A stretch of DNA of 43,347 bases from Promethearchaeota archaeon. Lineage in GTDB: Archaea; Asgardarchaeota; Lokiarchaeia; Sigyniarchaeales; SOKP01. The DNA lies in contig JAEOSU010000068.1 of assembly GCA_016840165.1 (NCBI GenBank), positions 1-43,347 of the forward strand, in the 5' to 3' direction. A program made the position numbers and the translations under genes. Under the pieces are notes generated by a model, which was not told the DNA's origin, did not search any database, and saw only the letters and a program-made list of their open reading frames with translations. This document shows, piece by piece, positions 34,738-43,347 of the stretch; within the stretch, counting starts at the first letter, position 1; every line of letters begins with the position of its first letter.

Positions 34738-34927
34738 TCACAACCTTTATTATTAAAAACTTAATATAGTTCAGTATAAAAATAATAGAATAAAATCTTA
34801 TAAAAATCTTTTTTATTTCGATTTAAATCAACATTTCAGATCATGCATTTAATTTTAGCTTAAGCAATATTATAAAAATAAATTCTTTTTTATAATTAAT
34901 AACTATTTGGTAATAATTGGGATAAAT

Positions 34928-35452
34928 ATGATGAGCTCATGGATTTTTAAGGTTATAGTCGCTGGGGCGGGGGGAGTTGGAAAAACAGCGATGATTACAA
35001 GATATTGTACCGGAAAATTTCAAGAGGGATATAAAATGACAATAGGTGCAGGGTTTCATACTAAATCTGAGACTTTAGATACGGGAGAATCTGTCAAAAT
35101 GCAGTTATGGGATTTTGCAGGGGAAAAACGTTTTAGAGAATTACTTCCAGATTATTGTAAAGGTGCTAGTGGTGCTTTTATATGCTTTGACATAACAGAC
35201 TATGATACATTTCGTGAGATTCCTGAATGGTTAAAAATAATTCGCCAAAAAGCAGGATTTATACCCATAATTCTAATGGGTATGAAATGGGACCTTCCGA
35301 ATCATGAAGTAGATCCAGATATTGCCCATGAATATGCCATGAGAGCTAAATGTAATCAATGTGTATTATGTTCCTCCAAAGATAATATTAACATAAATGA
35401 ATCTTTCCAAGCAATGGCTAAGTGGTTAATATATTATGCAGCTCAATGTTAA
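34928..35452 (+). CDS. Rab-like small GTPase (ATG at 34928; the track start is TTG at 34907)
   Basis: G1 GAGGVGKT, G2 YKMTIG, G3 LWDFAGE, Y..GA.GA..CFDIT, G4 MKWD, G5 CSSK. Confidence 0.9.
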   Translation: MMSSWIFKVIVAGAGGVGKTAMITRYCTGKFQEGYKMTIGAGFHTKSETLDTGESVKMQLWDFAGEKRFRELLPDYCKGASGAFICFDITDYDTFREIPEWLKIIRQKAGFIPIILMGMKWDLPNHEVDPDIAHEYAMRAKCNQCVLCSSKDNININESFQAMAKWLIYYAAQC

Positions 35453-35620
35453 TCCAAGGAATTCTTGATTAATATTATTATTGAAGTTAAAAAGAGTTAA
35501 TTAGGAGTTTTATATTATTTTTTTCAATTCAAAGATATTTTATTTATCGAAAAACCTAAAAAGGATTCTTAATAAATTTATTATAAGAGAAGGTTTCTTA
35601 CATTCTCCCTAAATTAACAA

Positions 35621-35775
35621 GCCTCGGTAGCTCAGTTAGGTAGAGCGCTGCTTCGGTGTGCCTAAAGCACCCGGCTAAGGTTATTTTAATATACCTCCGG
35701 AAGTTAACCGGGCGGTCGCATGTTCGAGATCTTATCTGTTGAAACCCAGATAAGACGAAAACCATGCCCGGGGCG
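35621..35775 (+). tRNA. tRNA-Asn(GTT) with three introns (22/23: 35644-35665; 33/34: 35677-35702; 59/60: 35729-35761)
   Basis: Spliced sequence GCCTCGG TA GCTC AGTTAGGTA GAGC A CCCGG CTGTTAA CCGGG CGGTC GCATG TTCGAGC CATGC CCGGGGC G (74 nt, G73). Confidence 0.9.
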
Positions 35776-35847
35776 CTTTAAATTTTACCTTTCTAAAAAT
35801 AATTATTAAAAGTAAGTTCCTAAATTTATATTGATTAAGTTTGTAAA

Positions 35848-35952
35848 TGCTCCCGCCGGGATTCGAACCCGGGTCGGCGGGGTGAAGGCCCGCAATGCTA
35901 GACCTTTTCTTATAGGTAAAGAGTTAAATTGGCCGGACTACACTACGGGAGC
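35848..35952 (-). tRNA. tRNA-Glu(TTC) with a 30-nt D-loop intron (21/22: 35899-35928) and C33
   Basis: GCTCCCG/CGGGAGC acceptor stem, GTGT/GCAT D stem, GCGGG-CCTTCAC-CCCGC anticodon arm, 4-nt variable loop, CCGGG-TTCGAAT-CCCGG T arm. Confidence 0.88.
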
Positions 35953-36066
35953 TTATTTTTGTATTTAAAATGAACGTTGTAAGTATTATTTTTTAATTAA
36001 TCGTCGATTTTAAATTTTATTATAATAGTAATACGACAGCTTTATCAACGCTCATGAATACGTAAG

Positions 36067-36151
36067 TGCGGGAAGGGAGATTTGAACTCCCGAACTCCTA
36101 CGAGAATGGATTCTAAGTCCATCGCCTTTGACCAAACTTGGCAATTCCCGC
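36067..36151 (-). tRNA. tRNA-Leu(TAG), intronless
   Basis: GCGGGAA/TTCCCGC acceptor stem, ATGGA-CTTAGAA-TCCAT anticodon arm, long variable arm; 85 nt. Confidence 0.96.
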
Positions 36152-36342
36152 GTGATAAATTTAGTATTAATTAATTTACATATTAAAAGGCTTAAAAATA
36201 AATAAATATATCATACTTAACAAGGACTTGTAATGAATAATAAGTGAATATTATGAAAAAATAGAAATATTTATGAGTAAATATTAGTGTTATTAAAACA
36301 AGATCTATATTTAGGATAAATCACAAAAATTGGTCTTTTTGG

Positions 36343-37341
36343 ATGAGTGTAAGGGAATCTTTAATCAAACATCTTACATCTATTTTAAGAGCATCTAATA
36401 GTACTATTTTGGTTATTTTATGTGATTTAAATGGGCTATCAATAGCTAAAATAGGAAGAAAAAGTGATATCGAGATTAATCCTAATCAAATTACAAGTTT
36501 AGCATCTGCTGCATTTTCCGCAAGCGAAGAAAACTGGGAAGACTTAGAGATCAAGGACCAAGTAATATCATTTACATTTTTTGAAAAAGTGTGTTTAATA
36601 ACCATTAGAATTAATGAAACACTATTGACTATTGTACATGATTATTATAAAGAGTGGCCCTTGGATGCCGATAGTCTAGCCAGCTCTATGTATTATATAA
36701 AGCAAAAGTTAGGGGAATTTTTTGGTACTACTGATGAAACTGAGGATAGTTTAGAAGATTTTTCTAATAAAGTCAGAAGTGCCATATATTTATTTGGAAT
36801 GGGATCTGAGGTCCCCTTCGTGTCATATTCGCCAGAAAAGTTTGATTCTGTTAACTTATTACCTGCTCTGAGTTTTGTGTTGGATTCTCTTCAAAATCCT
36901 ATTTTTATTCGATACTGTTTAGTGAGTCCTAACGGATTAACATTAGATGCTAGAGAAGTATCTGGACAAAATCTTCCGATATCTGTTGAGGCTTTTTCTG
37001 CAAATGCGAATGTTGCGTTTCAGAAAATGAAAGAAGAATCTGAGGGAAGTTCTATAGGTAAATTATTAGGTTATATTGCTATTTCTGGAAGAAACCCAGA
37101 AAATTTTTTTGGATTAATCACTTGTCCTTCAGGCGTGCTTAAATTTTCAGAAACGGAGGATAACTCGAACATGCAAAATGTTTCTTTTGTGGGATTATTT
37201 GCTTTAACTTATGGAGGAATACCAATTATTTGTGAGTCTAGAAATATTATCTATTCCATTTTGAATATTATTGGTTCAGAGGAAACTACAGAGAAGTTTA
37301 TCAAATCTGTAAATGTATTAACCAGTTTTAAATATGATTGA
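36343..37341 (+). CDS. Tandem roadblock/LAMTOR2-like domain protein
   Basis: Two repeats of helix, beta-hairpin (LCDLNGLSIA; LVSPNGLTLD), helix (ITSLASAAF; AFSANANVAF), beta strands, helix. Confidence 0.65.
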   Translation: MSVRESLIKHLTSILRASNSTILVILCDLNGLSIAKIGRKSDIEINPNQITSLASAAFSASEENWEDLEIKDQVISFTFFEKVCLITIRINETLLTIVHDYYKEWPLDADSLASSMYYIKQKLGEFFGTTDETEDSLEDFSNKVRSAIYLFGMGSEVPFVSYSPEKFDSVNLLPALSFVLDSLQNPIFIRYCLVSPNGLTLDAREVSGQNLPISVEAFSANANVAFQKMKEESEGSSIGKLLGYIAISGRNPENFFGLITCPSGVLKFSETEDNSNMQNVSFVGLFALTYGGIPIICESRNIIYSILNIIGSEETTEKFIKSVNVLTSFKYD

Positions 37342-37362
37342 AATTCTCTTCTGAAATTAGCT

Positions 37363-37830
37363 ATGAATAAACCAAATGATAATTTATTTAAAATAAAATT
37401 ATATTGTCTTCACTATAATGAATGTGATCCAAAAAAATGTACTGCTTTGAAGTTGGAAAAGTATAATTTAATTCAAATTATAAAAAAAAATGAAAGAAAA
37501 CTACAAAAAGCAATAGTGTTAAATCCCTTTTCTCTTTCAGAGATATCAATACAAGATAAAGATATAGTGAAAAAACATGGAGTGATCGTAATTGATTGTT
37601 CATGGAAAAACATCTTAAATATAAAGTCAATCCCATCAAATCATGCTAGAAAACTCCCTCCCTTAATCGCAGCAAATCCAGTTAATTATGGAAAATGGGA
37701 AAAATTAAGTTCTGTAGAAGCCTTAGCTGCTGCTTTGTATATAACAGGTTTCACTAAAAATGCAGATTTTATACTTTCAAAATTCTCATGGGGAATAGAA
37801 TTTAAAAAGATTAATGATTTTTATTTGTAA
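37363..37830 (+). CDS. tsr3: SSU rRNA aminocarboxypropyltransferase Tsr3
   Basis: ECDPKKCT..KL, LNPF, IDCSW, R.LP.LIAANPVNYG, LSSVEALAAALYI, F.WG..F. Confidence 0.95.
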   Translation: MNKPNDNLFKIKLYCLHYNECDPKKCTALKLEKYNLIQIIKKNERKLQKAIVLNPFSLSEISIQDKDIVKKHGVIVIDCSWKNILNIKSIPSNHARKLPPLIAANPVNYGKWEKLSSVEALAAALYITGFTKNADFILSKFSWGIEFKKINDFYL

Positions 37831-37879
37831 GAATTAAGGTGTGAAAATTTAAAATTAAAAATAAAAAATAAAATTGAGG

Positions 37880-39484
37880 TTATTCTTCACCTTTTTTTGA
37901 AAGGCCAGAAGCAGCTATAACATCATCTATCTTTAAGATCATGGAAGAGACTTCAGTTGCCGATTGAATAGCTTGAGATAAAACAGAAAGAGGTTCAATA
38001 ACGCCAAGACTCATCATATTATCTGGTATTCCAGCATCAATATTTATCCCAAAATGCACTCCACTATCAGTTTCATGTTTAGATCGTAATTCTACTAATA
38101 AATCGACAGGATTATAACCTGCATTCTCTACAAGAGTCTTCGGAATACTTTCTAATGCATTAGCATAGATTTCAATTGCTAACTGTTCTCTACCACCAAT
38201 TGAGCTAGCAAACGTTCTTAATCGCTTAGCTAATTCAATTTCTGAGGCGCCGCCTCCCGCTAAGACATATGGATTCTCCATAGCAGCCTTGACTACGTGT
38301 AGAGCATCATTTATCATTCTTTCTGCCTCATCTACAACATGCTCTATTCCAGCTCTAATTAAGATACTTACTGCTTTTGGATCAGCACATTCGGATACAA
38401 AGATCATATTATCTTCCCCAATCTTCTTTTCCTCTACTTTACCTGCTTTACCTAAATCATTGGTAGAGATTTCAAATAAATTGTTAACGATTTTTGCGTT
38501 TGTAGCACGAGCTAATTTTTCCATGTCCGATTTCTTAACTCTTCTCACAGTGATTATATCATTTTGAGCAAGGAAGTTCTGAGCTTTGTCATCAACTCCT
38601 TTTTGACAAAATACAACGTTTACTCCAATGCTTTTCAGTTTGTTGACTTTTTTTCTCAGCATATTCGCCTCTTCTTCAAGGAATTGATTGATTTGATCAG
38701 GAGTTTGGACTCTAATCTCAGCATCGAATTCTGTTTTCTCAATTTCTAAAGAAGAATTAATTAACGCTATATTGGCATTCTTTATTGATTTTGGCATCAT
38801 AGGATGGACTACTTCTTTATCTACAATGATTCCATCAATTATTTTTGTATCGAGAAGACTTTTTCCTTCTTTTTTAATGATCTGAATTTGGTCCAAATCT
38901 ATCATTATATGATCTCCTCGCATTTCTCTTATTTGGCTAACAGCATCGACAGCGATTTGTGAAAAATGACTTTTCACACCTCCGATTAACTTACTATTCA
39001 TAGATGTTTCAGCGACTTGTTTTAAGATCTCTTTGTCGTTAATATCAATTGAAGAAGCTAATTTTTTTAAGATCTCTTTACTTTTTACTAGTGCTTTTCG
39101 ATATCCCCTAAAAATGATTGTGGGATGAACAGATTGTTCCATTAATTCTTGTGCAAAATTTAACAACTCACCAGCTATAACTACGCTCGTAGTTGTCCCA
39201 TCTCCTACTTTATCATCTTGTGTTTTTGCAACCTCTACTATCATTTTAGCAGCGGGATGTTCTACATCAATTGTATCTAAAATTGTTGCTCCATCATTTG
39301 TAATAGTGACGTCACCAAGTGAATCAACAAGCATTTTATCCATTCCTTTTGGTCCTAAAGTAGTTCTAACAGCTTCTGCTACCGCTATTGCGGCAGCGAT
39401 ATTATTTTTTTGAGCATCTTTACCTGTTTTTCTTTCAGTCCCTTCTTTCAATATTAGTATAGGAACTCCGGATAGTTGTGACAT
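37880..39484 (-). CDS. ths: Thermosome (group II chaperonin) subunit
   Basis: [39 protein letters not shown]. Confidence 0.97.
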
Positions 39485-39678
39485 TTTAAATTCACATTTT
39501 TTGTATTAAATTATTAAGACTTATATAATGATCTCTAAGTCATAAAATTAAAAAAGTTTACGAAAATAAGATTTTCTCTAAAAAATTTATGTCTATAATA
39601 AAAATGATTTTTTTATCTTGAGATATTTCTAAGAAAGGGGGAAAAATTGTTGAGTTTAAAACACTTATACTTGAATAA

Positions 39679-42942: not shown

Positions 42943-43046
42943 TGGACCTGACGGGAATTGAACCCGTGACCTCTTGAGTGCAAGTCTTGTTAATCAAGTA
43001 AATTACTCGTTTAAAGTCAAGCGATCTGCTACTGATCTACAGGCCC
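42943..43046 (-). tRNA. tRNA-Ala(TGC) with a 32-nt intron at 32/33 (42984-43015)
   Basis: GGGCCTG/CAGGTCC acceptor stem with G3-U70, CTTGA-CTTGCAC-TCAAG after splicing, ACGGG-TTCAATT-CCCGT T arm; spliced length 72 nt. Confidence 0.93.

Positions 43047-43126: not shown

Positions 43127-43347
<221 letters not shown>

Follow-up and report, generated by a model that had tools for sequence, protein, structure and literature searches.

Does a locus of about 155 nt that standard annotation passes over encode the tRNA-Asn of an Asgard archaeon, and how would its three insertions be recognized and removed? The locus (positions 35621–35775, forward strand) lies on contig JAEOSU010000068.1, which was analysed at its full length of 43,347 nt and is referred to here as the window. 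This contig belongs to a metagenome-assembled genome (3.6 Mb, 31.6% GC, 105 contigs) estimated to be 99.7% complete with 6.3% contamination. The original prediction described a tRNA-Asn(GTT) gene interrupted by three non-canonical introns, each with a bulge–helix–bulge (BHB) core. Our analysis confirms this identity. We conclude with high confidence that the locus is a functional, and apparently the only, tRNA-Asn(GUU) gene of a Promethearchaeia archaeon, and that it carries three independent, protein-spliced introns of the BHB type.

The mature tRNA and its detection

Removal of positions 35644–35665, 35677–35702 and 35729–35761 (22, 26 and 33 nt) from the locus leaves a 74-nt cloverleaf, which ARAGORN calls as a full-length tRNA-Asn(GTT). 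Each cut falls after the second bulge nucleotide, the rule proposed in the original prediction, and the introns occupy Sprinzl positions 22/23, 33/34 and 59/60, also as proposed. In the product, the acceptor stem spans 7 bp including one G-U pair, the D stem 4 bp and the anticodon and T stems 5 bp each; the anticodon loop reads CUGUUAA and the discriminator base is G73. Inspection by eye identified U8, A14, G18G19, A21, U33, U54U55C56 and A58 together with the G15:C48 and G53:C61 pairs. The usual set of invariant bases is complete. Compared with an intronless orthologue from the same genus (L016:1474–1546), the 74-nt product differs at few positions, several of which are compensating changes within stems.

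The four exons divide the cloverleaf unevenly. Exon 1 (35621–35643) contains the 5′ strand of the acceptor stem, U8-A9, the 5′ strand of the D stem, the D loop and G22. Exon 2 (35666–35676) is only 11 nt long and supplies the 3′ strand of the D stem (AGC), A26, the 5′ strand of the anticodon stem, C32 and U33. The 26-nt exon 3 (35703–35728) begins with the anticodon GUU and continues through A37-A38, the 3′ strand of the anticodon stem, the variable loop, the 5′ strand of the T stem and the T loop as far as G59. Exon 4 (35762–35775) completes the molecule with C60, the 3′ strands of the T and acceptor stems, and G73. CCA is not encoded after G73, which is followed by CTT.

The flanking sequences contain candidate transcription signals. 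A TATA-like box, TTTATTATA(A), is located at 35579–35588 on the forward strand, approximately 33–42 nt upstream of the mature 5′ end. It is conserved in upstream alignments of the window with orthologous loci L002 and L004, where the surrounding bases vary, and may serve as a promoter element. Further 5′, a conserved block (CGAAAAACCTAAAAAGG; window 35548–35566) is common to L002 and L004, again with variable flanks. The T-rich 3′ trailer at 35776–35790 (CTTTAAATTTTACCT) is a candidate termination signal, judging from its composition.

The original prediction warned that standard tRNA finders might miss such a gene. The unspliced locus indeed escapes both ARAGORN and the Rfam tRNA model, even at a permissive E-value threshold, and the genome would consequently look as if it had no tRNA-Asn. 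Over the whole window ARAGORN reports a single tRNA, a Leu gene at 36066–36151, and Rfam reports the same gene and one beside the SSU rRNA. The prediction also raised the question of whether this is the only tRNA-Asn in the genome. ARAGORN with intron search found no second one in the whole assembly (23 tRNAs, none of them Asn), BLAST of the precursor against the assembly returned only the locus itself, and nowhere else does the assembly contain an intact GUU anticodon arm that resembles part of a tRNA. Because the assembly is divided into 105 contigs and has an estimated contamination of 6.3%, a second tRNA-Asn may lie in unassembled sequence.

The low number of recognizable tRNAs extends beyond Asn. 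The 23 tRNAs found by ARAGORN with intron search, and the approximately 20 above the Rfam cut-off, are few for a 99.7%-complete genome, and much of the tRNA set probably escapes recognition likewise, owing to multiple or non-canonical introns. A SPLITS-like script, which took GC-rich islands, listed BHB candidates, removed subsets of them and passed the products to ARAGORN, recovered the Asn gene; it returned about 10 loci with spurious parses and gave no usable count.

The window contains further RNA genes. A tRNA-Glu(UUC) gene at 35848–35952 on the reverse strand is interrupted once, by an intron of approximately 30 nt with the central helix GGCC/GGTC, at the border of D loop and D stem. Its anticodon loop, CCUUCAC, places a C at position 33, which is a near-invariant U in tRNAs. 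This C33 is common to L002 and L003, and L004 and L007 have CUUUCAC with U33. The tRNA-Glu orthologues at L002 (1307–1415, +) and L007 (1154–1290, −) carry an extra insert, approximately 35–40 nt long, that separates the variable region from the T stem and is absent from the copy in the window, another presence/absence difference in introns within the genus. A further tRNA with a 32-nt intron near 31/32–34/35 lies at 42943–43046 (−), just 3′ of the end of the SSU rRNA (43128–43347, −); its G3:U70 pair and CUUGCAC loop identify it as tRNA-Ala(UGC). The 5′ end of the LSU rRNA is located at 1–984 (−), on the same strand as the SSU rRNA and 42 kb from it at the opposite end of the contig, and the two rRNA genes therefore appear to be unlinked.

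Splice motifs and their conservation within the genus

We scored each intron against the standard BHB geometry. On either side, a 4-nt strand of the central helix directly precedes a bulge of 3 nt, whose second base is followed by the cut; the inner helix is formed within the intron and the outer helix by the exons. All three introns have a 4-bp central helix and two 3-nt bulges on opposite strands at exactly the boundaries that define the 74-nt product, and the three predicted junctions match the sequence as quoted. A BHB core in each intron is thus present in the sense of the original prediction, with the restriction that the strict hBHBh′ motif, in which outer and inner helices are both formed, is found only in intron 3. 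Introns 1 and 2 are of the relaxed HBh′ type; they have no exon-side outer helix, and their 3′ bulge is open and not closed.

Intron 3 has the most complete motif. Its junction (TTCG-AG↓A...CGAA-AA↓C, arrows marking the cuts) combines the central helix TTCG/CGAA with a 9-bp inner hairpin (TCTTATCTG/CAGATAAGA) and a 5-bp outer helix that is the T stem itself (GCATG/CATGC). The canonical 37/38 intron is laid out in the same manner on the anticodon arm, and intron 3 repeats this layout on the T arm. Strict hBHBh′ motifs can be cleaved by all types of the EndA splicing endonuclease.

The junction of intron 2 (CCGG-CT↓A...CCGG-AA↓G) is formed by CCGG at 35671–35674, corresponding to tRNA positions 28–31, and CCGG at 35697–35700, followed by a 4-bp inner helix (AGGT/ACCT), with no outer base pairs. 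Since the central helix takes bases 28–31 of the anticodon stem, the motif and the mature anticodon stem are mutually exclusive. Intron 1 (AGGT-AG↓A...GCCT-AA↓A) pairs AGGT at 35638–35641 with GCCT at 35660–35663 and has an inner helix of 6 bp, three of them G-U, and a single outer base pair. Its central helix is built from D-loop bases 17a–20, and the D stem contributes only G22, as a bulge base. The proposal that both of these splice helices borrow exon bases needed for the mature fold is therefore correct for the anticodon stem and does not apply to the D stem beyond that one nucleotide. Relaxed HBh′ motifs are known to be cut only by EndA types of broad specificity. The lack of an exon-side helix in introns 1 and 2 means that their cleavage would depend on a putative broad specificity of the host enzyme.

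The motifs are rare in shuffled sequence. In dinucleotide-preserving shuffles of each intron separately (20,000 trials), the observed central and inner helices were reached in 0.14% of trials for intron 1, 0.16% for intron 2 and fewer than 0.005% for intron 3. Among 3906 pairs of position and length in the precursor, nine give a 4/4 central helix with an inner helix of at least 3 bp, and these include the three real introns. The trinucleotide AGC is repeated at both ends of intron 1, and four registers consequently yield the same product; the 4/4 central helix occurs solely in the register of the original prediction.

We compared the precursor with 40 related genomes by BLAST and aligned the mature sequence to the resulting loci with a splice-aware procedure. 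The same tRNA-Asn gene was recovered from at least 15 congeneric genomes, with an intron count that ranges from zero to four. Orthologue boundaries were set by spliced alignment and manual register checks. Automatic assignment by maximal BHB score was rejected: ARAGORN is tolerant, and several of the resulting mature sequences were implausible. The intronless orthologue L016 reaches 66.8 bits with the Rfam tRNA model RF00005, L015 has a single intron at 59/60 and several orthologues have three. Five have four introns: L009, L010 and L012 (~1501–1697), L011 (1361–1575) and L013 (1427–1619). These combine introns in the D loop, at 33/34 and at 59/60 with an extra one in the T stem (~63/64), or include a second D-arm intron.

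Sequence and pairing are conserved differently in exons and introns. In the four closest orthologues the exons taken together are 97–100% identical and the introns 55–91%. Intron 2 is found at 33/34 in 14 of the 16 orthologues, and the eight pairs that we scored (the four central and the first four inner) are formed in every one of these 14 carriers. Three to four pair types occur at each position of the inner helix, and the central helix shows one double change, TCGG/CCGA. The 59/60 intron is present in eight genes (the window and seven orthologues), where the inner-helix sequences are unrelated and pairing is kept in most. Introns that diverge in sequence while staying paired, between exons that are conserved, form the pattern expected of spliced introns under selection for their motifs, and not that of a decaying gene.

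The core of intron 1 (...CTTCGGTGTGC...) is repeated in the D arm of most orthologues among the 14 that bear introns, as part of the intron there, and a D-arm core of the form ..AGCAxCG..TTCGGTGTGC.. is found in most D-arm introns. The splice site is located 4 nt further 5′ in L005–L014 than in the window and L002–L004. When L006 (1501–1673) is compared with window positions 35636–35672, its D-arm intron is seen to be flanked by a perfect 10-nt direct repeat, GTAGAGCACC, which makes the intron position ambiguous over 10 registers. The arrangement resembles that of an intron which originated in a local duplication and later slid.

These comparisons bear on two other readings of the locus. It could be a decaying tRNA pseudogene, with insertions that are not removed and BHB-like pairings that are leftovers or chance, and the weakness of the intron 1 motif (an inner helix with three G-U pairs, the lack of an outer helix and a pairing probability of 0.01 in the full precursor) would fit such a view. 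Nor did the RNA data show splicing. Sequencing runs sharing words with the window comprise 19 DNA runs, of which X1–X4, from marine sediment, contain 90–96% of the words sampled, and one metatranscriptome (X20). The latter shows no splicing at the locus: its contig pieces listed for region 34900–39500 all fall on the thermosome gene and none on tRNA-Asn, and no joint corresponds to an intron. Joints in the DNA runs around 35731–36067 (90% likeness, short sides) are taken to come from tRNA genes of other organisms and are uninformative on splicing. Decay is nevertheless difficult to reconcile with the failure to find any other tRNA-Asn in an assembly that is 99.7% complete, with exons that stay 97–100% identical as the introns diverge, with compensatory changes that keep intron helices paired across 14 orthologues, with shuffle frequencies of at most 0.0016 per intron and with the conserved upstream TATA-like box. 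We consider a pseudogene very improbable.

The same precursor can also be parsed differently. The subset search gave, with alternative BHB-like cuts, an ARAGORN-accepted 87-nt tRNA-His(GTG) with two introns and several Asn variants of 72–76 nt; a 76-nt product would have a 20-nt intron 1. The intronless L016 and the single-intron L015 fix the mature form as a 73–74-nt tRNA-Asn. The His parse draws its anticodon from within intron 1 and would yield a tRNA-His of class II size, and the genome encodes a normal, intronless tRNA-His(GTG) elsewhere. Among the product-equivalent registers of intron 1, only that of the original prediction has a complete central helix. Both parses were ruled out on these grounds, and a different cut pattern is scarcely credible. 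The three-intron tRNA-Asn(GUU) gene is the reading carried forward below.

Order of intron removal

The three introns lie side by side and are not nested, and their motifs occupy separate segments of the precursor. A structure containing all three motifs has a predicted free energy of −55.4 kcal/mol, 3.7 kcal/mol above the MFE of −59.1 kcal/mol. Since no motif overlaps another and a single structure can accommodate all three, the layout does not require a fixed order of splicing, as the original prediction had suggested it might. Folding models do, however, give some backing to one part of that idea, the removal of intron 2 before intron 1. All of the values below are for unmodified, protein-free RNA at 37 °C.

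Partition function calculations for the full precursor assign the intron 2 and intron 3 helices probabilities of approximately 0.87 each, and the MFE fold of the whole precursor contains exactly the intron 3 motif. The central helix of intron 1 has a probability of 0.01–0.02 as long as intron 2 is present and 0.89–0.93 after its removal. If intron 1 is removed first, the intron 2 helix falls from 0.87 to 0.3–0.46. In the MFE fold, parts of intron 1 (GCUGCU and CGGU) pair with the 3′ strand of the anticodon stem and with the variable region; the former strand is free while the intron 2 motif holds its 5′ partner.

These models suggest, tentatively, a conditional order in which introns 2 and 3 would be cut from the primary transcript and the intron 1 motif would form only once intron 2 is gone. 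Such an order would be an addition to the main explanation and not an alternative identity for the locus. Besides the switch in intron 1 pairing and the weakening of intron 2 when intron 1 leaves first, the same dependence is repeated in L004 (0.06 to 0.89) and L006 (0.06 to 0.99). There is also precedent: ordered removal of independent BHB motifs was seen by RT-PCR in Cyanidioschyzon merolae (PMC3728597), and an obligatory order is described for nested archaeal introns of Crenarchaeota, as summarized in PMC3978253. On the other hand, the all-motif structure is only slightly less stable than the MFE, and the calculations treat protein-free RNA at a single temperature. The dependence is also missing from other orthologues, with the intron 1 helix at or below 0.12 in every intermediate of L002 and L003 and never forming in L005, L007 and L008 with the boundaries used. 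Either the pattern is not conserved or the model misses D-arm motifs. On balance we regard the conditional order as possible but somewhat doubtful.

A more speculative extension, which we think unlikely, gives intron 1 two further properties. It would act as a built-in checkpoint, pairing with the 3′ strand of the anticodon stem until intron 2 has gone, and it would be a D-arm intron that arose by local exon duplication and slid by 4 nt between sublineages. If true, the checkpoint would amount to an enforced order, intron 2 and then intron 1, for non-nested archaeal introns, and the duplication and slide could bear on how Asgard tRNA introns arrive.

Splicing enzymes, host and related systems

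The genome encodes two EndA paralogues, one alpha-like and one beta-like, at sites away from the tRNA-Asn locus. Their frames are G000:C14 37158–37382 and G000:C4 49673–49921. The nearest catalytic chains to paralogue 1 are 3P1Z_B, 3AJV_B and 2ZYZ_B, from the Aeropyrum pernix and Pyrobaculum heterotetramers. Profiles of fused EndA match paralogue 2 over their structural, N-terminal half, and a beta-subunit model matches it weakly. RtcB is also encoded in the genome. Asgard EndA has been reported as an (alpha-beta)2 enzyme in which the L1 loop is linked to broad specificity (PMC5829648).

From these components we infer transcription of the locus and cleavage and ligation of its product along the following lines. 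The gene would be transcribed as a precursor of about 155 nt with three introns, plus leader and trailer. A heterotetramer-type endonuclease assembled from the EndA alpha and beta paralogues would cleave each 3-nt bulge 3′ of its second nucleotide, the exons would be joined by RtcB, and CCA would be added later. The anticodon arm would refold once intron 2 has been spliced out, because the intron 2 motif needs anticodon-stem bases 28–31. Any order among these cleavages would be of the modelled kind discussed above.

The host can be placed from neighbouring genes. The adjacent thermosome gene is 79–86% identical to genes of metagenome-assembled genomes, including ones titled Promethearchaeota, Promethearchaeia or Hodarchaeota, and a Ras-family GTPase gene lies just upstream of the tRNA-Asn. 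Together, by their likeness, these genes indicate a Loki-type Asgard archaeon of the Promethearchaeia (Lokiarchaeia). With three inserts relative to the compact orthologue L016 and an Asgard host, the locus belongs among heavily interrupted Asgard tRNA genes.

The description of three-intron tRNAs as rare and mainly known from Thermoproteales holds for the older literature, in which three introns were the maximum per tRNA gene in that order (PMC4033280). It no longer describes the Asgard archaea. In the complete genomes of Atabeyarchaeia and Freyarchaeia, 92–95% of tRNA genes contain introns, and over half of these interrupted genes have several (PMC11291895). A 2026 preprint by Goswami et al. 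covers three focal Asgard families, in which a tRNA gene has on average 2.2 intervening sequences and at most five (10.64898/2026.10.13.758758), and the orthologues described here reach four. The preprint also finds that annotators miss D-arm insertions and that T-arm insertions have the cleanest motifs.

The present gene resembles these published Asgard genes (PMC11291895; 10.64898/2026.10.13.758758) in having several introns of approximately 20–35 nt at non-canonical sites in the D, anticodon and T arms. The likeness extends to a clean, canonical BHB motif in the T arm and a weak one in the D arm, to being missed by standard annotators, to intron presence that varies between close relatives and to a two-paralogue EndA. 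It differs in its source: the published cases are from Freyarchaeia/Jordiarchaeia and Atabeyarchaeia, and the series described here, with zero to four introns in one tRNA-Asn, is from a Promethearchaeia genus. Neither Lokiarchaeia nor Promethearchaeia is named in the main text of the 2026 preprint.

Comparable arrangements are known outside the Asgard group. Thermoproteales genes (Sugahara et al. 2007, 2008) have up to three BHB or relaxed introns, including a T-loop intron of the 59/60 type, and these are cut by a broad-specificity (alpha-beta)2 EndA, as summarized in PMC4033280 and PMC6379350. Those organisms are TACK hyperthermophiles with GC-rich genomes, unlike the Asgard host with its 31.6% GC. 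In some multi-intron Thermoproteales genes the introns are nested and their order is obligatory, whereas the introns of the present gene are placed side by side. A further case is the red alga C. merolae (Soma et al. 2013, PMC3728597), where three independent, non-nested BHB motifs occur in one precursor. The order there was found to follow motif stability; in our folding models, too, the least stable motif is that of intron 1, which also depends on another. The C. merolae system, unlike this one, operates in a eukaryotic nucleus with a different endonuclease composition, and its order was obtained by RT-PCR, compared with modelling here.

Multi-intron Asgard tRNA genes having already been published, this gene is a well-supported but ordinary example of its kind, and it leaves the known picture of how these introns work unchanged. 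What it adds is an example from the Promethearchaeia (Lokiarchaeia) and a range of zero to four introns in one gene within one genus. In this tRNA-Asn set, nature provides a compact series in which the gain, loss and sliding of introns can be studied and the range of substrates accepted by Asgard EndA explored.
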